This document shows positions 12,601 through 62,454 of a DNA stretch of 64,000 nucleotides, piece after piece (positions within the stretch are counted from its first letter, which is position 1; each line of letters starts with the position of its first letter). This DNA is from Leucoraja ocellata. Its lineage: Eukaryota. The notes under the pieces are model-generated. The model was not told the origin of the DNA. It saw only the letters and a program-made list of their open reading frames with translations, and did not search any database. A program made the position numbers and the translations under genes. The stretch is taken from NCBI GenBank assembly GCA_036785375.1, contig JAWMAR010000002.1, positions 18,166,001 to 18,230,000 on the forward strand, read 5' to 3'.

Positions 12601-13600
12601 AGTATAGAGATACTGCACGGAAACAGGCCCTTCGGACCACCAAGTCCGAGCCGAGCAGCGGTTCCCATACACTGGCACTATCCTACACACTAGGGACAAT
12701 TTACAATTTTTACCTAAGACAATTAACCTACAAACCTGTAGGTCTTTGGAGTGTGGAAAGAAACCAGCGCCAGGAGAAAACCCACCCAGTCACGGAGAGA
12801 ACATACAAACTCCCACAGACAGCACCCTTAGTCAGGATCGAGCCAGAGTGTCTGACGCTATAATGGGCCTGTCCCACTTAGGCGATTTTTCAGGCGACTG
12901 CCAAGTTGCCGGCAGTCGCCTGAAAAACCGGCAACTGGAATGGCCACTGTCAGAGTGGAACACACGCACACACACATCGCTTCCTTCACCAGCCCGTTAT
13001 GTTAGTGGGAGACAGGGTAAGTGGGGGGAGCACTGTCTGAATGAAATTCACACAGTGCAAAGCAAATGCGATACAAACACACACCGCAATGAACAGGAAG
13101 GTTGGTGCTGTAATTAAGATGGCAAAATCAGTGTACGGCAAGTCCTTTAAAAGAGGGGGGAGACAACTTTTAAGAAGGCAGAGATACACGGCTGTGAAGC
13201 TCGGCGGACATTTGACATTACCGGTCGGTTATCCTTGGTTCTGAAAACTACTGCTTAGGTTTTTTTTCCCCCAATGAGCCAATGAAATTCACTGGTCAGC
13301 ACTGGCTAAGAGAACCTTTGACCTCCTGGCAACCCATTAGGACATCCTGGCGACCCACCTACGGCACGGGAATTCTCGCTACTCTCCATGGCGGCTTCAT
13401 TCTAGTTGCCACTAATTTTTCAGCATGTTGAAATATTTGCGGCGACTATAATGAGGCCGCGACTAGTTCCCAGAATGCAGGAACTCCTCACGACCATGAA
13501 GGCGACTCCCCGGCAACCACTCGCAAACATGTCTCCTTCAGTCGCCTGAGTGGGACAGGCCCATAAGGCAGTAACTCTACCGCTGCTCCATGGTGCTACC
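12601..13600 (-). mobile_element. HE1-type V-SINE interrupted by a Harbinger MITE
   Basis: Tail agagatactgcacggaaacaggcccttcgg, body to ...gacgctataa (12863), resuming at taaggcagtaactctaccgctgc (13564). Confidence 0.85.
12864..13563. mobile_element. PIF/Harbinger-type non-autonomous DNA transposon (700 bp)
   Basis: 22-bp TIRs TGGGCCTGTCCCACT(T/C)AGGCGA with one mismatch; TAA target duplication at 12861-12863 and 13564-13566. Confidence 0.9.
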
Positions 13601-14122: not shown

Positions 14123-14899
14123 TGGTGTGGCGGCGCCTATCGGCAGCGGCTCGACTACAGTCCGCATGTTTTTTTTTATTTTCTTTGTCTTGTTAAGTGT
14201 ATGTGTTGAGTCTAATTTTTATTATTTTTCTTTAGCTGTGTATATGTGGGGGGTGGGGAAACCGTTAGTCCCTTCACTTTTTCTCTGTCGGGTCTCAGTG
14301 TCATTGGGCCTAGCATCGTGGAGCCGGCAGCGGCCTCTGGCCGGGACCAATCTGAGGGTTCCAGTCGCGGAGCCTGCGGACCTGCCATCGCGGAGCTGGC
14401 CGACTTCGGAGCGGGAGGAGTTGTAGTGACGCGCAGCTATGACCCGACTTCGGAGCTTTGGAGGTTCCAGGCGCAGGCCCGGTGGACAGGAACATCAGGA
14501 GCTCGCAGGTCCCTGGTGGGAGACCGCTTTTCGGAGCTCCCGCAACGGCAACTTCTCCCTCTAGAATCGCGGGGTTTAAAGGACACGGAGCCAGGCCTAA
14601 CATCGCCCCGCGTGGCTTAAATGGCCACAGGACTTAGCATCGCCCGCCGAGGATTTTAACATAGTGAGCCCCAGTCGCCTCGACGCTGCAGTTGGACTGC
14701 TGGACCGCAGGAGAAGAACAAAGGGAAGAGATAAGACTTTGCCTTCCATCACAATGAGGAGATGTTGGAGATTCACTGTGATGGATGTTTATGTAAACTG
14801 TGTTAAGTGTGTGTCTTGGGTTTTTTTTTGTAATGTAATTTCGTTCAAACCAAGCTGTTTGAATGACAATAAAAGGTATTCTATTCTATTCTCTATTCT
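14123..14899 (+). mobile_element. GC/CpG-rich non-autonomous retroposon-like element with tgacaataaa and (TATTC)n tail
   Basis: Sharp GC rise, 3' end gaatgacaataaaaggtattctattctattct typical of a Rex1/L2-type tail; family not identified. Confidence 0.55.
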
Positions 14900-15201
14900 A
14901 ATCCATTAAACAGTGAAAACTGCTATTTGTACAACATGCACAACCCCTTCATGACCACCCCCTTGACTGACCTTGCTATTTGGCATAAACTTTAAAGGAT
15001 CATAGAATCTTGTGAATATAAAGTATGACGAGAGAAAAAAAATCTTTGCAGGAGTATTTTGAAATGAAAATTATCTTGAATTTAACAGAAATCTAAATAC
15101 ATGTCAAGCTGCATTTGTGGCAGTAGCCAGAATTAGGTCATAATATCATACATCATCAGAATTAATAGGCCATTGATCTGACATTATCTCTATCTCTCTC
15201 C

Positions 15202-16299: not shown

Positions 16300-18070
16300 A
16301 ACCCATCTTGTTTTTTTTTTTAATCTCTTTATTGACCTATCCTGGTACTTTTAATAATCCGTGTTAACAATGTACTGAAGACATTCTTACTCTTATACTC
16401 AAATTTCACAATACTCATAACATTTGTTTACACTTTAACCTTCAATAACATACTTAAGAATACCCAAGTCCTTTTGAACAACTATTATTCAATTCCTTAC
16501 TATTTAAAACAAATACTCCACTTATTTTATTTTTTCTACCAAGTGGATAACCACATTTTTCAACATAATATTCCACTTAACTTGTTGTTTCTCATTTACT
16601 TAGTCTAAGTGTATCCTCAACCCATTCTAAATCCAACTCATAACCAATATGCCAAATATTTCCAGCATTCTATATTCACCAAATCAAATCAACTTCCCCC
16701 CCATAGCCATTATTCAGTTTACTGTTTACCAATTATTTTTAAATTCCTGAATGCAGTTAAGGAATACCATGCTCTCAATCATATTTATACCAACACTATC
16801 TCTGTTACTATTATGGTAAATAAAAACTATTATTACTGCTTTAGCACTTTTACATGTCAGAAATATGCTTACAAATTTGTTTTCTTTCCCTCAGAGATCT
16901 TTAATACATTCCCAACAATGTTACTGTGCCATTTTTTGTTCTTTAATTCAACATATAGCCTAATTTCACAGAAGATTTACATCATAGAAGGTCATCATAG
17001 ATGCTGCCTCAACCGCTGAGTTTCTCCAGCATTTTTGTCTGCCTTCGTTTTTCCAGCATCTGCAGTTCCTTCTTAAACATCATAACCAACAATACCACCC
17101 AGCACAAAATCACCAGCAAACATGTATAAATTTAACACAATTTCCCCATCCAAATCATTATATAAATTGGGAAAGCATAGAGAACAGCCACTGATCCCTA
17201 CAGTTCTCCACTAATTACAGCCTCCCAACATGAAAGCTACCCATTCATTCCCACTCTTTGCTTGTTAACTAATCCTTAGTGTGCAGCAATACTCATGCTT
17301 CAAATTTGTTTAATAACCTCTTGCAGTCCGTCAAAGATTTTCTGAAAGCACGTTGACCATATCCAGTGGTTTTTTTGCTCATTTATTCTGCTAATTACAA
17401 CCTAAAACTCTAAAAAAAATTGAAAATGTAATTTCTATTTGGCTAAACTATGTTAATGCCCTGTGACTACTTTCTTATTAATAGATTCTAGCATGTTCAT
17501 TACTCCCAACAACTGACTTATTAGTCTGCAGTTCACCATTTTCTCTCCCCCTTCATTCATGAAGAATGGAGTTACATCTGTCCTCTTCAAATTTGTGAGA
17601 ACCATTCTAGAATCTATGGCATGGTGGAAAATGAAAACTTGAAATGCAGATTAATCAGATTTCAGTCACGTGTATTGGTCTTTTTTTTAAAAAACTAAAG
17701 CTAAATTCTTCAGCTTCTTCACTCTAGAGCTACGTTCAGCAGTGTTTTCAGGTTTTTTGCCTCTACTTTCAAGAAGGTAGTCACAAATAAAATTGCTTCA
17801 TTTCCCTGCCATTTCCTTTTCCCGTAATATTTGTCCTTTTTCAATAATGAACACATTAACTTTTTCTATGCTTTCTTTTTGTTGTACACACACACACTTA
17901 TAGAAGCTTCTAAAGTCTGATTAGTTTCTTGCAAGATTATTCACATGGTATACTGTTTCCTTATCAACATTTTGTTCCTTTCCCAAATTACGAAAGGTTC
18001 CTAATTCATTAATTCACTACACTTTAAGCAACATTGCAAATCTTTGCCTTTAACTTCTCATTAGCCATGG
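16300..18070 (-). mobile_element. Ancient degraded CR1 LINE (RT region), interrupted at ~16640-17085
   Basis: Antisense CR1 hallmarks ctaccaagtggataaccac, catccaaatcattatataaatt, cactgatccctacagttctccactaattacagcctcccaac. Confidence 0.55.
16649..16989 (+). repeat. Local duplicate, copy 1 (about 340 bp, paired with 20803-21142)
   Basis: Colinear near-identical text from atgccaaatatttccagcatt to tttacat(c/g)atagaa. Confidence 0.9.
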
Positions 18071-18353
18071 GTTTAATATGATATTTAAAACAAACAATAT
18101 AAACATTATAATTTATTATTTGTTCAGTGTCATTAGTTGTAATGACATTTTAGAATCACATCAACACATGCTTCCCATCTACATAGTTGGATTTTTAAAA
18201 AAACGTCTCTTTTTAGATTGAGCTAAAACACTTTAAATCCATATATAAAGTTTTATTGCATTCTATTAAATGCTTTCATTCTTCTTGAAAAGACCAGAAG
18301 TGCAAGGTTTAGCACATCCTCAATCTACAATACAAGATCTAAAACAGGTTATA

Positions 18354-20010
18354 CAGGTGCACAACCTTTTATCTGAAAGCCTTGGGACCGGACACTTTTC
18401 GTAATTCAGAATTTGTCGGTCTTCGGAATGGAAATTTTTTAGCGTAGATTTTAATGGCTGGCTCAGTGGTAGAGTGCTCGGCTCATATCCGCAAGGTCAC
18501 GAGTTTGCGCCTTGATTCCGGCAGTTACTCGGTCGCGAGTTTGAGTCTTCAATGTAGTTTTTTCTTGCAGAATAAATGTCTGTATGAAATGCAGTGTGTT
18601 GAATGAATTCCTGAATTTGTAAATGTGCCCGCAGCATTGAATCACCTCTCGCACTCATGTCACCCTAGTGGGGCTACATGCCCTTAGGCGGCCTAGCTCG
18701 GGGATTCTTGAATCCCCGAGCTAGGTCGCGAGTTTGCGCCTCGATCCTGGCAGTTACTCGGTCGTGAGTTTGAGTCTTCAATGTAGTTTTTTCTTGCAGA
18801 ATAAATGTTTGTATGAAATGCAGTGTAGGAGAGGTGTACTGACTGTGTGGGCAGAACTTTGGAAGTGATTGCCCACCAGTCTAAAAAGCCGCTGTGTCTC
18901 CCTGTCCCTGGGATATCAGGGGGCGATCAAACAGCACAATACCCCCCTCCCCCTCCAACTCCAGAGGAATCCTCTCCCCGATGGGCCGCTACGGCGACAA
19001 GTGGCAGTTTGCCCACAGCCCGAGCTGCGCCACCCCAAGAACAAGACGTACCTTGCACACCATCAGCTTCTGCCCCTACGTGTTCCTCTGGAGTTGGAGC
19101 GGGGCTGGGCTGGAGTTGCTGCTGGCTGTGGGTCTCTGGGATCTCCGTGTTTGCAGTGGGCCTGCGGGTCGCTGTCCCGTTGGTCCTGACGTCTCCGGCC
19201 ACCCCCCTGGACTGGAGCTGAGACTGGGAACTGTACCGCCCTTGCCCCCTCCCTCTGCAACTGCAAACAACCCCACTCTCCTGCAAGGGCGGTACAGTTC
19301 CCGGAGGATAGCAGGTGGCCGGAGACGTCAGGACCAACAGGAACCCGCTCCCCGATGGGCCCCTACGACGCCCCGAGCTGCGCCCCGTCATCCGCAACCC
19401 AGGTTCCTCTGTAGTTGGAGCGGGGCTGGGCTGCTGTTGGCTGTGGGTCTCTGGGTTCTCCGCGCTTGCGGTGGGCCTGGTGGTCGACGTCCAATTGGTC
19501 CTGACGTCTCCGGTGACTGCACTGTCCTGCTGCCATCGCCGACGTGAAGACAGTGCAAAGCCCCCGCGCCAGTGCAATGAGCTGGCTACGGGTCAGGGAG
19601 AGGGGAGGGAAGGGGTCACACACATGGCAGGGAAGCAGAGGGGTGTAGGTGGGGTGAAACTGAGGGGAGCGACAATCTGCTGCTGCCTGCACGCTGAGTT
19701 AAAAAGTTCCCACGCAAGACTCACGATACACTGTGTATCGTGAGTCTACCGTGGGAACTTTTTAACTCAGCGGGCAGGTAGCAGCATATTGTCAATTATT
19801 AACCCTCCCGCGCAATATACCCTCACCTTCTCTTTTATGAATGGGGATTTAGTTCCCCTTTCTTCGAGGACCGACCGGAGGTTCCGCTGTCACCTCTGCA
19901 GGCCGCCCTCGGTGAACGTTTTCAAGGATCTTTCTTCAAGGACCGAAAAAAATGTCCGCTATTCGGAGGTTTTCGTTATTTGGATCTTCGGATAAAAGGT
20001 TGTGCACCTG
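18354..20010. mobile_element. Tc1/mariner (Tigger/pogo-like) non-autonomous DNA transposon, 1657 bp
   Basis: 24-bp TIRs CAGGTGCACAACCTTTTATC(T/C)GAA with one mismatch; TA duplications at 18352-18353 and 20011-20012; no transposase ORF. Confidence 0.9.
19671..19793. repeat. 123-bp near-perfect palindrome (61-bp arms, 5 mismatches, 1-nt centre)
   Basis: gacaatctgctgctgcctgcacgctgagttaaaaagttcccacgcaagactcacgatacac-t-gtgtatcgtgagtctaccgtgggaactttttaactcagcgggcaggtagcagcatattgtc. Confidence 0.95.
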
Positions 20011-20802
20011 TATCATTGTTTGTACTTCAACAAGCTAATCAAGAAAGTCATTGTCCATGAATTTGTCTTTTACACAATTATTGCACATTTGGTTTGTCCA
20101 GTCTTTCTGTTGATTAAAGTTCCCCATAATTATTACAATAAATTGTTACATGCAGCAAAAAAATTCCTAATTTATAACATCGCCATTGCATGCCCCCCCC
20201 CCCTCCCCCCCTCACTTTGTTTTCCTAATTTTCTTTATAATTTCATTCTAAAATTCAAAATTCTCTGTATGCTTCCAGGCTCTCTACTGCATTATTTTCA
20301 GTCTCATTCTTCCCTATTTTGCCTTCTCATCCTCAATGCACATTGCCAAAACTGGAGCCTCCTGGGTGAGAATCACATGCTTTTTCTTTGTGGGAACACA
20401 CTTATTTGAAACCCTTAAATCTCTTTCTTAAATGCTCACATTGCCCAGAGACTGATTTATCTTCAAATAGCTACTTCTGGTGGACCTTTAGTAAATCACT
20501 TCTTAGTCAAATAAAGTTAACCTTATCCCAATAGTGAACCTTTAACCCTATTTTATCTTTGTCCTTTTCCATAACTATGTTAACCCTAAATGAATTATGA
20601 TCACAACCAACAAAATACTCCCGCACTGATACTTTTTCAACTGCTCAGCTTCATTCCCCAAAGCCAAAAAACCCTGCAGATCCTGCAAACGGAAAATGCC
20701 TGAATACACAGGAGGTCATACAACACATGTCCAAAGAGAAACAGAGTTAGTGTTTCAGGTTAATGACGTTAACTGTTTCACTCTACAAAGGTGCTGCCTA
20801 AC

Positions 20803-21142
20803 ATGCCAAATATTTCCAGCATTTTATATTCACCAAATCAAATCAACTCCCCCTCCCCACCCCCACTATTCAGTTTACTGTTTACCAATTATTTTAAAAC
20901 TCCTGAATGCAGTTAAGGAATACCATGCTCTCAATCATATTTATACCAACTCTACCTGTTACTATTAAGGTTAAAAAAAAAACTTTTATTACTGCTTTAG
21001 CACTTTTACATGTCAGAAATGTGCTTACAAATTTGTTCTCTTTCCCTCAGAGATCTTTAATACATTCCCAACAATATTTCTGTGCCACTTTTTGTTCTTT
21101 AATTCAACGTATAGCCTAATTTTACAGATTTACATGATAGAA
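20803..21142 (+). repeat. Local duplicate, copy 2
   Basis: Direct repeat of 16649-16989, about 90% identical by eye. Confidence 0.9.
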
Positions 21143-21170
21143 AGCCATTTGGTTCAGTTCCCAGTTATAT

Positions 21171-26807: not shown

Positions 26808-26850
26808 CATTCAGCCTTGCTTGCCTGTTGGACCTTACTCGCAAAAATGT
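26808..26850 (-). CDS. RNF220: RNF220 internal coding exon (43 bp, phase 0->1)
   Basis: Long pyrimidine tract then ttctttatAG|ACA TTT TTG CGA GTA AGG TCC AAC AGG CAA GCA AGG CTG AAT G|GTAAGG = TFLRVRSNRQARLN (human TFLRVRANRQTRLN). Confidence 0.95.
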
Positions 26851-27006
26851 CTATAAAGAAAAACAGAAAAGAAAGGTGAAAAATAAATAAGAAGCACTTA
26901 AACTGTCAAATACTGCCCGAATATAAGTGAAATATATGCTTGAAGCAGATGGATTGCAGTGGATTCTCCCATTGCCCCAACTACACAGGATGTAAACAAA
27001 ACCTAC

Positions 27007-27099
27007 TTCCTCCTTGCCATTGGTGTGTTCTGGATCCTCCACTCCTGCTGGGTCCATGGCAGGAATAAAATGGGATAACCTGTCAATATTACTTGGCAT
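27007..27099 (-). CDS. RNF220: Putative alternative first coding exon of a short (N-terminally truncated) RNF220 isoform
   Basis: ATG at 27099 opens MPSNIDRLSHFIPAMDPAGVEDPEHTNGKEE, ending GAA|GTAGGT at phase 0. A 156-bp intron leads to the phase-0 exon 26808-26850. The second ATG (27057) is in GCCATGG Kozak context. Confidence 0.65.
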
Positions 27100-27124
27100 G
27101 AATGTAGCACCTGGAAGCTTTGCA

Positions 27125-27332
27125 CCTTTATAATCCGATCCGTGCAGTTCACAGCAACTGGGAGGATGTCATTGGATTGCAACCAAGAGGCTGCATCTTG
27201 CACAGCTTACACCAGGCCCCGGAGAAAGCGCGGCCACGTGACCGTCGGCGAAAGGTGAAAGTGCACATCACAAAGCGCGCCTGCGCCAAGCGCCCGATAG
27301 GTGGCAGCAGTTCAGCATCCAAGAACAGCGCC
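27125..27332 (-). promoter_or_regulatory. Internal CpG-rich promoter candidate (TATA, CCAAT, E-box, NRF1-like, CTCF-like motifs)
   Basis: Local CpG cluster not attributable to a repeat. Minus strand: TATAAAGG 27132-27125, CCAAT 27175-27171, GTCACGTGGC 27242-27233. Plus strand: GCGCCTGCGC 27277-27286, CCGATAGGTGGCAG 27294-27307. Confidence 0.6.
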
Positions 27333-28599
27333 TGGACTTCTCTCAGTCAGCGCTGCAGCCCACGCTGTTCCTGCTCTTTGCAAAACACTTCATGCACTTC
27401 TTAATTATACCTGAAAACAACTTCATGCATTCAAGACAGAACATAATTTTTTTAAGCATTCAAGGCAGAAAATAAACCTTTCATCAATACAAGAAACAGT
27501 GGGACAATTTCCCTTCACATCTTAAGCAAACCCCCTTGAACTGAAAGTTGCACATTGAATTAATACAACATTAGAATTGGGAAAGAACAGGTAAATGGTG
27601 TCATTGAATGAAAAATACACACACACAAATTAGATTGCAGACTACTGATGAGACTGGTACAGTGATAACAGCTCCTCATAGAGACAACATTCTCTGACAC
27701 TATTCCTTCTGCATGTGAGAGGTTAATGATAGCACAACACAGTAAAACACATTTTCATCAACAACAGGAGAGCATCAATTATACAAACTATTTATAATTA
27801 GAAGTGGTGAGGATCCAATAATTCACTTACTGAGATACTCAAACACTAATTAAGCCAGATATACAGTTTGTTTTCTCTCACCGTTAAGGATGTCGTCTTC
27901 TGGAGTCATAAAGTACAGAAGACCATTTGGCTATCATGTCTATGTCAGTGATTTGAAAGGGCTCTCCAATTTGTTGCATTCTCCTGCTCTTTCTTTGTCA
28001 ATATCCTGCATTTATTTTCTTTTTCACGTATATAACAATTTCCCTTTTGAAATTTATTGTTGGATCATCTTGTAACCACTGCACTCCAAGCCACCGAATC
28101 AAATAATGTTTAGCTAAAACTTAACTCACCTGATTATTTTGCCTGATATCTTAAATTTATGTCTTCTGGTTTCTGAGCCTCCAGATAGAGAAAATATTTG
28201 CCTCTTATTTAGTTCATTAGACCTCTCATAACTTTGGATATTAAATCTACTCTTAACCTTCTCTATGGAGAACAGTCATGGATTTTCTTGATTGACCCAC
28301 ATTCAAGTTCCCTCATTTCAGGTTTCATTCCATTAAAACTCATCTGCAACCTCTCTATACATTTTGCTGTAATTTAGCAATTATTTTTATAAAGGATCCT
28401 TGCAATCTATGGTGTTCTGTCCTAGTATATTCTGCATGGTGAATTTCAAGAGTACCTACGACATAAAGCTGCAATAAGAAATACCCTTCTTGAGCTTAAA
28501 TGCATGAGCAATTATACCTCTGTCAATTGTGACATGAATTATTGAGAATTACCTGAGCAGTAGGCATTGGTTTGCTTGTCTGTATGCATGATTTTTTAA

Positions 28600-29602: not shown

Positions 29603-32222
29603 ACGTGTAGATTTTGGCAACATTACCTTGAATTCAATCCTTTGCTTTAGTTCTGATTCAGTACAAATTAAAACTCAAAATTAACCTCTTTGTTCCCTTC
29701 ATGATTTAAGTGTGTTGCTAATGATCTTTTCCTCTTATCCACTACAATTTGTTTCCAGTATTCTGTTTAACTTTATGTTTCCCGTCCCGTGATTTTAAAA
29801 TGCAGTCCTGTACAATCATTGTCGTCTTCCCTCGATCCTTCCCTCAGACTCTTATCTTTATGTTAATTAAGCATCGAAAGAAGAACGTCATGTTCTCATT
29901 TTGCCTTCTCACTGACAAAAAAAAGTGATTTCTCATCAAGGTAAGTGATTTCTCATTTCAGGAAAGAATAACAACGTCAGTAGTAATTACCTGATTCTTC
30001 TGCTTTCTCACTACACATTATATTACCTTCATCAATGAATGAGTAGCAAGAGAATTCCACATTTAAGGGACTAACATTTTACAGAATTTAAAATTGCGGA
30101 AGAATTAAAATTCAGTAACAAGTAAATAAATAAAACACATTTTTGCAAGATCACATAACATCTAGATATTTTTTACTTGGTAAAATATCACAGGACTGCG
30201 CTCCTTGGACAAACTATTTTCATTAAGGGTCGAAAGAAGGTTGATGTCACCAAGCTAGGTCACCTTGGGGTTAAGATACCTGAACAATGAGATCCCTCAG
30301 ATGTTGAGGTATATCTCAAATGATATGCCCAGCAATGGAAATTCAGACCCAAACTAAACCCCAGGAGAACACGATATACTCAACGGAAGGTCAGACAGGC
30401 CAATGTGAGGCAACTGATAATTATCCAGCCACTCCAGCTCATTAGCTCAACTTGGAGGGTAGAACAGTCATTGGAGCTGGCATTCTTCTCATTCCAATCT
30501 TTCTAAATAAACTTTCTAAAATAATCCAAAATCGTGATCCAGCAGAAAAGTTACGTGGTCTTTACTTCTGCTTCGCAACATGAGTTTGGTCCTGAAAGTT
30601 TTGTTGGTTAAGCTCCAGCATTTCACAATGTGCATATTCGCAGGTCTGTCAATTTCCAAATTTGCTTAAAATCCTTGGGTTTAAATAAATCAAGTATGTG
30701 CACCCCACTCGTGGAAAACAGAATCCACATCTGTGTGCAATTCCTGTGTGTTAAAGACTCTTAAAGATGGGGACAGATTTTTGCGTTACAAGGGAGTAGA
30801 TTACTTTTTGGCAATGCACTCCTGATATGTAATGGGGAAGACAAAATATGTGTACAGCGCTGGAGAAAACACAGTCACTACTCACAAAGCCCAATTGCTA
30901 AAGAAGGGCACAATATGTCAGACTTGTTAAAATAATACTTTTTAAATCAAACAGTGAAATTAGCATTTTTGTTCCAGCCCCTTACTGGGTGGTGTTTTAT
31001 TTTCACACTTATTAATTTGACTGCCAAAACTACAAATAAAAAATGTGATGCTCCTGCACTATGTTTACACATTCCATGAAAATTCTAATGTGAGCGAAGT
31101 AAAACAGTTTGACCCCCCACCAAAATTATCCACCATCCAGTCATTATTTTTGCTTATTTGTATTTGTTTTTTTGCAGTTCTCCTGTTCCTCTGATAATAG
31201 ACCTGACAAATGCACCATTGGGAATGGTAAATGGCCAAACAGAACATGGTTTGAGCTGAGTTAACTGACATAAGCCGCAGCAACAGTAGGTGCACTGTAA
31301 TTGGTCTCAGAACTCTTGAGCTATGGAAAGGTAAATCAACCCGTGGCCTCGATCTCGATCATTATCCAGTGACTTGAAAGACAGAGTGCAAACTCCAGCT
31401 GAGAACTGACCAGCTTTGACCATCGTAGTCCCTAAGATGGAAGAGCTATGTTAAAAAGCACCACCCAAGTTACAAAATGAATGGTTGGTTGTCCAGGATA
31501 GGTGAAGAACTACTGATGCCTGAGCATCAATGCTTCAACACAAGTCGTTGATTTGAGGATCCGACAGTAGGGAAAAAAAGTGTGAATAATAATTTATTTT
31601 CAAGCCAGCTATTTTCCAGGTTTCAAATCATAAAAACCTTTCTATTGTCCAGAGCCTGCACAAATTAAAACTGGTTTCATATTAATAGCTCTTTTTAGTG
31701 ACCAGCTTTAATGACCTGCTCAAAAGTGGAATGGTTTCTGTATGATAATATATATATATTTTTAAATCATATATTCCAAGTGATGAAATCAACTTCCTAA
31801 TAGCATTCTCAGTAACTAACATAATCAGGTTTATGTAACTCTTCAGGAAATATTGGCATTATATTGAACTTAATTTTTTGTTTAAATAATCCTAATTGCC
31901 GGTTACTTGAGTTGTTCCCTAGAATTAAAAATATCTCTCTTTTTATCATTACCCATTGTAAAACCTTTATTTTTTTTAAAGGAATCCTACTGGTGAGAAT
32001 TCCTACTTCAGATGATCCTTGCTGATGAGATTGACCATTTAAATGATGCTCTGATTTAAAAGGGAGTCCTGTTGATAAATCACATGAATGAATATCCTTT
32101 CGGAAAAGGTTTCCTCATTCTGATATTGGAATAGTTGGAACATTATCCAGATACACATACGAATCACATTGCACCTGGGTTCTTACAACTGCCAATGGAT
32201 GCCATGCTTTCCCTTTTCCCAC

Positions 32223-32318
32223 CTGGTATCTGTCTGAATGATGAGTGTCATCTGCAGAGAGAGGTGATGCTGTCGGTGATTCCCCTTCCCTTTTAATTGG
32301 TGCTGATAGCAATACAGA
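32223..32318 (-). CDS. RNF220: RNF220 internal coding exon (96 bp, phase 0->0)
   Basis: ttccacAG|TCT...CAG|GTGGGA; translates SVLLSAPIKREGESPTASPLSADDTHHSDRYQ, matching human RNF220 SLLLSASIKREGESPTASPHSSATDDLHHSDRYQ. Confidence 0.95.
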
Positions 32319-41261: not shown

Positions 41262-42390
41262 TAGTCATAGTCATACACCATGGAAACAGGTTCTTTGGCA
41301 CAACTCATTCATGCCCATTGTAATTTACCCATGTTTGGCCCATATTCCTCTAAACATTTCCTATCCATGTACATGTCTAAATGTCTTTTAAATGTTATTA
41401 TTGTACCCGTCTCAACTGCCTCCTGTGGCAGCTCATTCCATTTACCCACCAACCCCTGAGTGCAAAGGTTCCCCCTCAGGTTGCTATTAAATCGTCCTCC
41501 TTTTATTTTAAACCTATGCCCTCTAGTTCACGATTCTCCTACCTTGGGGAAAAAGGCTCTGGGCATTCACCCTATCTATTGTCCTCATGATTGTATATAC
41601 CTGCAAATGATCCTCCCTCAACCTCCTGTGCAGCAAGCCTGCCCAATCTTTCCCTGTAGCCCAGGCCCTCGATTCAATAGGCAATAGACAATAGACAGGT
41701 GTAGGCCATTCGGCCCTTTGAGCCAGCACCGCCATTCAATGTGATCATGGCTGATCATCCCCAATCAGTACCCCGTTCCTGCATTATCCCCAGACTCAGC
41801 TGTCTTTAAGAGCCCTATCTAGCTCTCTCTTGAAAGTATCCAGAGAACTGGCCTCCACCACCCTCTGAGGCAGAGAATTCCACACTCACAACTCTCTGTA
41901 GGAAAAAGTGTTTCCTCATCTCCGTTCTAAATGGCTTACCCCTTATTCTTAAACTGTGGCCCCTGGTTCTGGATTCCCCCAACATCGGGAACATTTTTCC
42001 TGCCTCTAGCGTGTCCAAACCCTTAACAATCTTATATATTTCAATAAGATCCCCTCTTATCCTTCCCAGAGTGTACAAGCCCAGCCGCTCTGTTCTCTCA
42101 GCATATGACAGTCCCACAATCCTGGGAATTAACCTTGTAAAACCTACGCTGCACTCCCTCAATAGCAAGAATGTCCTTCTTCAAATTAGGGGACCAAAAC
42201 TGCACATAATACTCCAAGTAAATTCCTGGCAACACCCTTGTAAATCTTCTCTGCACTTGTTCAAGCTTAGTGGCATCTTTCTTATAGCAGGGCGACCAAA
42301 CCTGAACACAATACTCCAAATGTAGCTTCACCAACATCTTGTGCAACTGTAACTGTCCCAACTTCTATACTCATTTCTCTGACTGATGTT
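41262..42390 (-). mobile_element. CR1 3' fragment split by a second CR1 insertion (41672-42217)
   Basis: Outer tail tagtcatagtcata, ORF ...REDHLQVYTIMRTIDRVNAQSLFP, resuming at 42218 with VKLHLEYCVQVWSPCYKKD; inner tail caatagacaatagac. Confidence 0.85.
41672..42217 (-). mobile_element. Younger CR1 3' fragment (nested)
   Basis: ORF GLSYAERTERLGLYTLGRIRGDLIEIYKIVKGLDTLEAGKMFPMLGESRTRGHSLRIRGKPFRTEMRKHFF. Confidence 0.9.
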
Positions 42391-42820: not shown

Positions 42821-43969
42821 GATAGCTACTGATAGCTGCTGTCCAGTGTTCCACGATGGTAATGCCAGTGTCTGCCCACTACGTACATTAGCAATGGATG
42901 TTCACTATCCCTGTGGACACCCTGTTCAAAATGGATCTGTTGCCAATCACCGCACAAATGTGCTGAGGGACCACATATGTTATTTTAGGGCAGAAAGGAT
43001 GGATGGATTACATAAAAACAGACACTTCAGAGCCCAATTTCTCCCTGTAAAATTCAACAGTAGATTCCTCAATTATAGTGCTTACACCATTTGAAAGGAA
43101 AGTGAATGTTAAAAGCATTTTGATGGAAGATACTTGTAATGATACAGCACCATGAGACAGCGAAGGACAAAGTATTTTGCAGTATCACCAGAACACTCAA
43201 TATCTTTGACATATTTCTGTCACACTGAGATCTACACAGAAGCGGAAAATCAGGGACCCTCAGTGAGTCATCACCTGTTCTCTCACTCCTCTTCTTCCTT
43301 TCGTGCTTGAAGAAAGGGTGCTGTGCAGGTCAGCAGTTGTGCTGAGAGGCGATAGAAGCGAGGGAAAATTAATCAAAAAAATAATTTGTGCAGCATGATT
43401 AAAAAACATAACTTTTACACAACCAGCTAGCTCAGCACAAGTGACATTTGCAAGAGGGAAAAGTATCTTCTAAAGGTAGGAGCTTAAAAATAATAATTCA
43501 TGGCTTTTCAACCTTTTACATGATGTTCCCCCACCAGCTAATTTTAGGTTTAATGGCAGTAAGGCAATTAATCTTTGCAAGCCTGGTGGCTCCAACACCT
43601 CTGACTTGAAGACAGCTCCTTTTTAGAGAGAAGCATTAGACATCTTTCCCTTGCCATTTTCTATCCCGCAAATTAATCTCCGTCGTACATCTCTAAAATG
43701 AATTGAAATTGCTAGCATATTGTAAATATTGTTTCCCTATGCGTGCAGGATCATGTGTCATAAAGTGAATGGAAGTGCATTTCCCTCTGACATTTTGTTA
43801 ACTGAATTTCCTTTAAGGCAGCCATTTGAGACTATTAAGTGCTATACCCTCATTTATAGACGGCTTTCTCGCTCCCTTTCTTTTCCTGTGTCTACAGGGT
43901 TGTCAGTAGATTAAATGAAAGAAAAACTCAGCTCCAATAAAACTGATTCTCTCGTTCTATTTAACACAT

Positions 43970-52514: not shown

Positions 52515-52560
52515 CTTCACAGTCCCTTGGAGTGTGTTGTCCTTCAACATGGAATGCTTA
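52515..52560 (-). CDS. RNF220: RNF220 internal coding exon (46 bp, phase 2->0; equivalent to the human KNSLLKDAMAPGTPK exon)
   Basis: Minus strand reads tttcttcaacAG|T AAG CAT TCC ATG TTG AAG GAC AAC ACA CTC CAA GGG ACT GTG AAG|GTAAGT, i.e. (S)KHSMLKDNTLQGTVK. Length and register match the remembered human RNF220 segment SKNSLLKDAMAPGTPK, and it joins in frame to 32223-32318. Confidence 0.85.
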
Positions 52561-61666: not shown

Positions 61667-62454
61667 TAGAAACATAGAAACATAGAAATTAGGTGCAGGA
61701 GTAGGCCATTCAGCCCTTCGAGCCTGCACCGCCATTCAATATGATCATGGCTGATCATCCAACTCAGTATCCCGTACCTGCCTTCTCTCCATACCCTCTG
61801 ATCCTCTTAGCCACAGGGGCCACATCTAACTCCCTCTTAAATATAGCCAATGAACTGGCCTCAACTACCCTCTGTGGCAGAGAGTTCCAGAGATTCACCA
61901 TTCTCTGTGTGAAAAAAATTCTTCTCATCTCAGTTTTAAAGGATTTCCCCCTTATCCTTAAGCTGTGACCCCTTGTCCTGGACTTCCCCAACATCAGGAA
62001 CAATCTTCCTGCATCTAGCCTGTCCAAACCCTTAAGAATTTTGTAAGTTTCTATAAGATGCCCTCTCAATCTCCTAAATTCTAGAGAGTATAAACCAAGT
62101 CTATCCAGTCTTTCTTCATAAGACAGTCCTGACATCCCAGGAATCAGTCTGGTGAACCTTCTCTGCACTCCCTCTATGGCAAGAATGTCCTTCCTCAGAT
62201 TTGGAGACCAAAACTGTACACAATACTCCAGGTGTTGTCTCACCAAGACCCTGTACAACTGCAGTAGAACCTCCCTGCTCCTATACAAATCCTTTTGCTA
62301 TGAAAGCTAACATACCATTCGCTTTCTTCACTGCCTGCTGCACCTGCATGCCTACTTTCAATGACTGGTGTACCATGACACCCAGGTCTCGCTGCATCTC
62401 CCTTTTTCCTAGTCGGCCACCATTTAGATAATAGTCTGCTTTCCTGTTTTTGCC
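61667..62454 (-). mobile_element. Young CR1 (HER1-like) LINE, 5'-truncated, ~790 bp
   Basis: ORFs 61764-62288 and 62281-62574 give QRDLGVMVHQSLK...KANGMLAFIAKG and LYRVLVRQHLEYCVQFWSP...RELDVA with one frameshift; (tagaaaca)n tail. Confidence 0.95.

Follow-up and report, generated by a model that had tools for sequence, protein, structure and literature searches.

The RNF220a gene of the skate Leucoraja ocellata very probably contains an internal promoter with a private coding first exon that yields an N-terminally deleted (delta-N) RNF220, the orthologue of human isoform 4a, and this arrangement would go back to the jawed-vertebrate ancestor or earlier. The exon lies on the minus strand of the analysed stretch of 64,000 nucleotides (hereafter the window), ends at position 27007, and is confirmed by sequence comparison as the orthologue of human exon 5a, the first exon of isoform 4. 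According to the proposed mechanism, the intron that precedes the TFLRV exon would house an alternative promoter, and the short first exon of the transcript started there would bring its own start codon and would be joined in phase 0, across 156 nt, to the shared exons. The isoform is already published for mammals and the shark exon is already present in RefSeq; what is considered here is the form that this unit takes in a batoid, its age, and the properties it would confer on the ligase.

The private first exon and its homologues

The gene in the window is batoid RNF220a on the minus strand. RNF220a proteins of skates and rays, retrieved with one of the window exons, map by tblastn to three collinear exons on this strand: an upstream 46-nt exon of the long isoform (52515..52560), the last exon used only by the long isoform (32223..32318), which by comparison carries the two Ser-Pro sites matching mouse S282 and S286, and the first shared exon of 43 nt (TFLRVRSNRQARLN; 26808..26850), placed by tblastn of skate RNF220a. 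The residues encoded by these three exons are identical to RNF220a of Leucoraja and Pristis (60/60), and 55-59 of the 60 match in the other chondrichthyans tested. The exon order matches that of RNF220 proteins, which are characterized by Pfam PF15926 and a C-terminal RING. A window exon alone gives a weak match to PF15926 (E 0.22), the frame containing the private exon gives no Pfam match, and the second Cys knuckle corresponds to no named zinc-finger family above the Pfam cut-off. Motif and tblastn searches detected no RNF220 exon below 26808 in the window; the RING exons are located outside it, and the RING itself was found by Pfam in the proteins of relatives (P0021 and P0121).

Two further elements of the gene are related to alternative splicing. 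At positions 43275-43349 (minus strand), a 75-nt cassette exon that is known from RNF220a annotations of Hemitrygon and Pristis survives as a remnant, with 74% identity and an intact donor, but with CG at the place of the expected acceptor AG. Judging from its splice sites, this cassette exon has probably been lost in this lineage, and the missing acceptor is consistent with a skate. Directly after the last long-isoform exon, positions 32187-32222 (minus strand) form a 36-nt in-frame extension followed by a second donor, GTAAGA, and the extension matches a 12-residue insertion of two Narcine isoforms.

Within the private first exon, the coding sequence (27007..27057, minus strand, 51 nt) specifies MDPAGVEDPEHTNGKEE and ends in phase 0 at the donor GAA|GTAGGT after 27007. 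The donor is followed by a 156-nt GT-AG intron of phase 0 (26851..27006, minus strand; acceptor with 17/18 pyrimidines); the next exon is the one at 26850. The upstream ATG at 27099, the GCCATGG with the ATG at 27057 and the phase-0 donor were all found on the minus strand as the preliminary description had placed them, and its claim of a coding first exon for a short isoform is supported by annotated homologues from shark to mammals and by the human isoform (PMC12296455).

Homologous N-termini were sought among short RNF220 proteins, where the best 120 of 210 matches were considered, 113 of them named, and most of the "X" isoforms among them are computational predictions. Isoform X6 of Cetorhinus maximus RNF220a (P0121, a RefSeq prediction of 325 aa and a member of a cluster of 14) represents the only chondrichthyan species with a short protein in this comparison. 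Its 31 N-terminal residues join TFLRV at the same junction and are identical to the window frame 27099-27007 at 25 of 31 positions; against the 17 codons 27057-27007 the identity is 13/17, and the last six residues are the same. Within these best 120 of 210 matches, 55 of the 78 named short proteins that could be anchored have a private Met-initiated start at the TFLRV junction, and such forms are present in shark, sturgeon, paddlefish, gar, bowfin, teleosts, frogs, lizards, turtle, duck and mammals. When donors were scored blindly with 41 distinct bony-vertebrate private peptides of at least 8 residues each, the donor at 27007 reached 13.5 (background mean -12.0, sd 5.2) and ranked first of 147 in the intron and first of 1743 on the window strand, so that alignment with annotated short isoforms bears out the predicted peptide. 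It also ranked first with the ray-finned peptides alone, and second of 1743 with the tetrapod peptides alone.

Could the exon instead be an internal cassette of the long transcript, with the CpG cluster upstream of it acting as an enhancer or CTCF site? Cassette exons do occur elsewhere in the gene, and an in-frame AG at 27118 would give an open exon of 111 nt; however, this AG is preceded by only 7/18 pyrimidines, the peptide occurs in none of 166 named long isoforms, and the homologous peptides are Met-initiated N-termini. More generally, no upstream AG combines an open in-frame exon with a pyrimidine tract (7-8 of 18 as against 15-17). Since the peptide is absent from the long isoforms and a good upstream acceptor is lacking, the exon at 27007..27057 is considered a first exon, and the cassette reading is highly improbable. 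An equally slight chance is given to the exon being a silent relic in this lineage. The codon at the bony-fish start Met is GTG here, and this genome seems to have lost the acceptor of the cassette exon at 43349-43275, both of which could point to decay; against this, the frame is open, the Kozak context is optimal, the donor is intact, the last six residues are shared with the shark, and CpGs are retained although the CpG observed/expected ratio (o/e) of the genome is 0.34.

CpG cluster, promoter motifs and start codon

The presumed promoter of the short RNF220a isoform is a small CpG cluster at 27136..27364 with 17 CpG. Its best 200 bp contain 15 CpG (GC 0.61, o/e 0.81) against a repeat-masked window background of 2.0 CpG per 200 bp, an excess with a Poisson probability of about 1e-6 over the window when clumping is ignored. 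These 200 bp qualify as an island under the definition of 200 bp, GC above 50% and o/e above 0.6, whereas at the 500-bp scale the values (GC 0.51, o/e 0.56) fall short of the stricter definition (500 bp, GC 55%, o/e 0.65). On this composition 27136-27364 is a small CpG island of presumed promoter activity, and it would be a small unmethylated promoter that drives the transcript. The preliminary description had called it the clearest non-repeat CpG cluster, 150-500 bp upstream of the TFLRV exon. The cluster is real, but the measured distance is 286-514 bp, and two 200-bp segments are denser, at 14361 (19 CpG) and 19301 (17 CpG).

These denser segments belong to other elements of the window. The one at 19301 lies inside an element of 1.66 kb (18351-20013) that is bounded by 27-nt terminal inverted repeats (96%) and contains internal duplications as well as a palindrome with 61-nt arms at 19671-19793; this element is likely to be a non-autonomous DNA transposon. 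The other lies in 14125-14900, a stretch that has the highest CpG density in the window (19 per 200 bp) and ends in AATAAA and a short tandem tail; it is retroposon-like yet has no second copy in the window, and the label "repeat" is based on the retroposon-like tail only. Elsewhere, a 700-bp element at 12863-13564, inserted beside a dispersed repeat, contains a hairpin and is bounded by 23-nt terminal inverted repeats (96%), an AT-rich 350-bp segment is directly duplicated (16646-16995 and 20800-21148, 91% identical), and two fragments at 41696-42219 and 61696-62233 are 77% identical, with frames that we take to resemble the ends of CR1-type LINE reverse transcriptases.

All the promoter motifs listed in the preliminary description are present at their minus-strand positions, and consensus patterns were compared with 100 shuffles. 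The CTCF-like site (27294..27307, one mismatch to the consensus) has no second match in the window, but a match also turns up in 43 of 100 shuffles; the NRF1-like site GCGCAGGCGC (27277..27286), again the sole window match to its consensus, is reached in 1 of 100 shuffles and is the only tested motif that beats chance. The E-box GTCACGTG (27235..27242, minus strand) has five copies in the window. A candidate CCAAT box is present at 27171..27175 (minus strand), and the TATA-like TATAAAGG (27125..27132, minus strand) deviates by one mismatch from TATAWAWR and falls outside the 39 strict matches to this pattern in the window; the pairing of CCAAT with TATAWA is at chance level (3 matches, 4.98 expected). 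As only the NRF1-like site beats the shuffles, the promoter claim is based on the CpG cluster and homology and not on the boxes.

Two in-frame ATGs compete for initiation. The ATG at 27057, which would give MDPAGVEDPEHTNGKEE-TFLRV and was preferred in the preliminary description, has the optimal Kozak context GCC-ATG-G, and the ATG at 27099, with 13 further codons (27058..27099, minus strand), has the poor context TTC-ATG-C and could represent a leader or an N-terminal extension. The earlier preference is upheld by the context but becomes less firm, because the 14 upstream codons are conserved like the 17 downstream (12/14 against 13/17 identical to Cetorhinus X6, the former with no indel between batoid and shark). 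We consider 27057 the likely start and favour it over 27099 on codon context and comparison. Transcription would begin near 27100, and the ATG at 27057 would be reached by leaky scanning; use of the TATA-like box would place 27099 right at the cap.

With the same promoter and exon, transcription could also begin further upstream in the CpG cluster and translation at 27099, which we regard as rather unlikely. The RefSeq model of the basking shark begins at this ATG, the upstream codons are conserved between batoid and shark as described, and the non-canonical nature of TATAAAGG loosens the tie to a cap near 27100. Annotation pipelines, in turn, usually choose the longest frame, which reduces the weight of the shark model. 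Apart from the poor context, the private peptides of bony vertebrates measure 8-22 aa with one outlier of 3 aa, and transcription starts upstream of 27172 would bring in out-of-frame ATGs; a private N-terminus of 31 residues, as follows from 27099, is accordingly somewhat improbable, and initiation at 27057 is retained below.

Relation to known short isoforms and age of the short form

N-terminally deleted RNF220 isoforms of mammals, which the preliminary description had mentioned, are described in PMC12296455. Human isoform 4 has 308 aa, starts from exon 5a and has been detected as protein; it is the main RNF220 isoform outside the brain, and the start of exon 5a carries the strongest H3K4me3 peak in most tissues (PMC12296455). 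In human and skate alike, the private coding first exon is flanked by the same pair of exons, joins TFLRV in phase 0 and encodes a peptide of similar size (18 residues in mammals, 17 in the skate), and the skate product would retain the RING as the human one does. The private peptide is Arg/Gly-rich in mammals and acidic in the skate. Ray-finned short forms, including zebrafish Rnf220a of 307 aa (P0159), resemble the skate in their acidic peptide and identical junction, and the private peptides of both end in Asn-Gly-Lys plus two residues. The zebrafish protein has 12 private residues, starts at the codon that is GTG (Val) in the skate (27042-27040, 12 codons before the donor), and has an internal Met; in Cetorhinus X6, whose annotated start is the upstream ATG, Met occupies the position of this GTG codon.

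Human isoform 4 has a second start, M38 (isoform 4b), and is required for myoblast differentiation (PMC12296455). Given the 18 private residues in mammals, M38 coincides with the Met that follows RIGK, and the site can thereby be matched between species. The exon that encodes this site is outside the window and was tested on relatives, with counts that are inflated by isoforms: of 45 named chondrichthyan proteins, representing 19 species, 44 have Asn at the site and the remaining one is without the motif, and among the other 274 proteins Met is found in 221, Leu in 3, and the motif is lacking in 50, which gives Met in 221 of 224 bony-vertebrate proteins with the motif. It can be inferred that the 4b start is lacking in this animal, and the distribution suggests that it is limited to bony vertebrates. 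A vertebrate-like long protein of 577 aa with Asn after RIGK was excluded from the dating of the Asn/Met change.

The exon is common to sharks and bony vertebrates and therefore dates at least to their ancestor, in line with the jawed-vertebrate age proposed earlier. Short proteins also occur in hagfish: two RNF220-like proteins of 300-301 aa (P0200, P0202) begin with a Met located 15 residues ahead of this junction, and their Pfam match starts at profile position 86-87. They are divergent (55% identity), and the similarity of their private peptides is weak, as 50 and 29 of 1743 background peptides score equally well. In a tree of 33 rows the two hagfish proteins join one protein of 333 aa (96/89), and the vertebrate relationships are left without resolution; the hagfish proteins are possibly a separate short-only paralogue. 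In view of the weak peptide scores and the tree, an origin older than jawed vertebrates is only a lead. The same comparisons contain a divergent clade of long RNF220-like proteins (P0282, P0284, P0307 and P0350; 100/100 support), which we assume may be a fish rnf220b-type paralogue.

It has been suggested that the short form is the original one and the long N-terminus a later addition (PMC12296455), which would make the promoter in the window ancestral. On the one hand, the isoforms cited there for zebrafish and fly are all short, and the hagfish proteins begin at the TFLRV junction. On the other hand, long RNF220 with the N-terminal motif and the first knuckle is present in all 11 named invertebrate proteins checked (528-632 aa, from coral, molluscs, a nemertean, a brachiopod and amphioxus), and a predicted zebrafish RNF220a model of 603 aa has 308 residues before TFLRV. 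For the fly, a paper describes N-terminal stretches that Tey orthologues have in common (10.1101/2022.11.18.517102). The invertebrate and zebrafish long forms argue, contrary to that suggestion, that the short form is derived, its exon having been added within an older long gene, and the short-first order is very unlikely. A more specific and quite tentative extension is that the delta-N promoter is a vertebrate novelty that arose before cyclostomes and gnathostomes separated, as a degron-deleting switch in a long gene inherited from the common ancestor of corals and bilaterians, and that 4b was added later in bony vertebrates. Under this extension the hagfish short proteins would descend from the same transcription unit, and a start placed after the Ser282/Ser286 exon would produce a RING ligase without Smurf1/2 docking that loses N-terminal substrates of the TDP43 type.

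Predicted properties of the short ligase and their meaning

The predicted product is a delta-N E3 ligase of 17 + 268 = 285 aa, or of about 311 aa with a 26-residue alternative segment. That roughly the first 300 residues would be dropped and the RING kept agrees with the comparison, in which 300 residues are lost and the short relatives contain the Pfam RING. In terms of domains, short forms of relatives lose the first 70-85 of the 249 RNF220-domain positions (Pfam) and retain the RING. The skate product would lack the conserved N-terminal motifs, the first Cys-x2-Cys knuckle and two Ser-Pro Smurf docking sites; it would still contain the basic segment, the RING and about two thirds of the RNF220 domain, from the distal side.

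Two aspects of this loss are related to described interactions. First, S282 and S286 of mouse RNF220 are docking sites for Smurf1/2 (PMC10400574), and these Ser-Pro sites fall in the skipped exon in rodent, in skate and in the window; second, the binding of TDP43 requires the N-terminal part of RNF220 (PMC8373269). No RNF220 domain mapping was found in the accessible portions of PMC9524831 and PMC7288745. With the docking exon skipped and the N-terminus needed for TDP43, the short ligase should escape Smurf and see other substrates; it would thus avoid degradation driven by Smurf1/2, and it may be broadly expressed as in mammals.

The main text of PMC12296455 contains no mention of sharks or Smurf, and in the RNF220 literature covered, which excludes most subscription journals, no paper was found on the history of the isoform in cartilaginous fishes. 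Within the same coverage, the derived nature of the short form, the Asn at M38 in cartilaginous fishes and the loss of the Smurf sites appear to be additions to what is published. Delta-N isoforms from internal promoters are common, and the relevance of the present case is mainly for those who work on RNF220. The exon-2 knockout, which is in wide use, probably leaves the mammalian short isoform intact (PMC12296455); the comparison reverses the order suggested in that paper, placing the long form first, and it leads to the prediction that the short form should not bind Smurf1/2. That cartilaginous fishes have the short form as well speaks for a conserved role and against mere noise in mammals.
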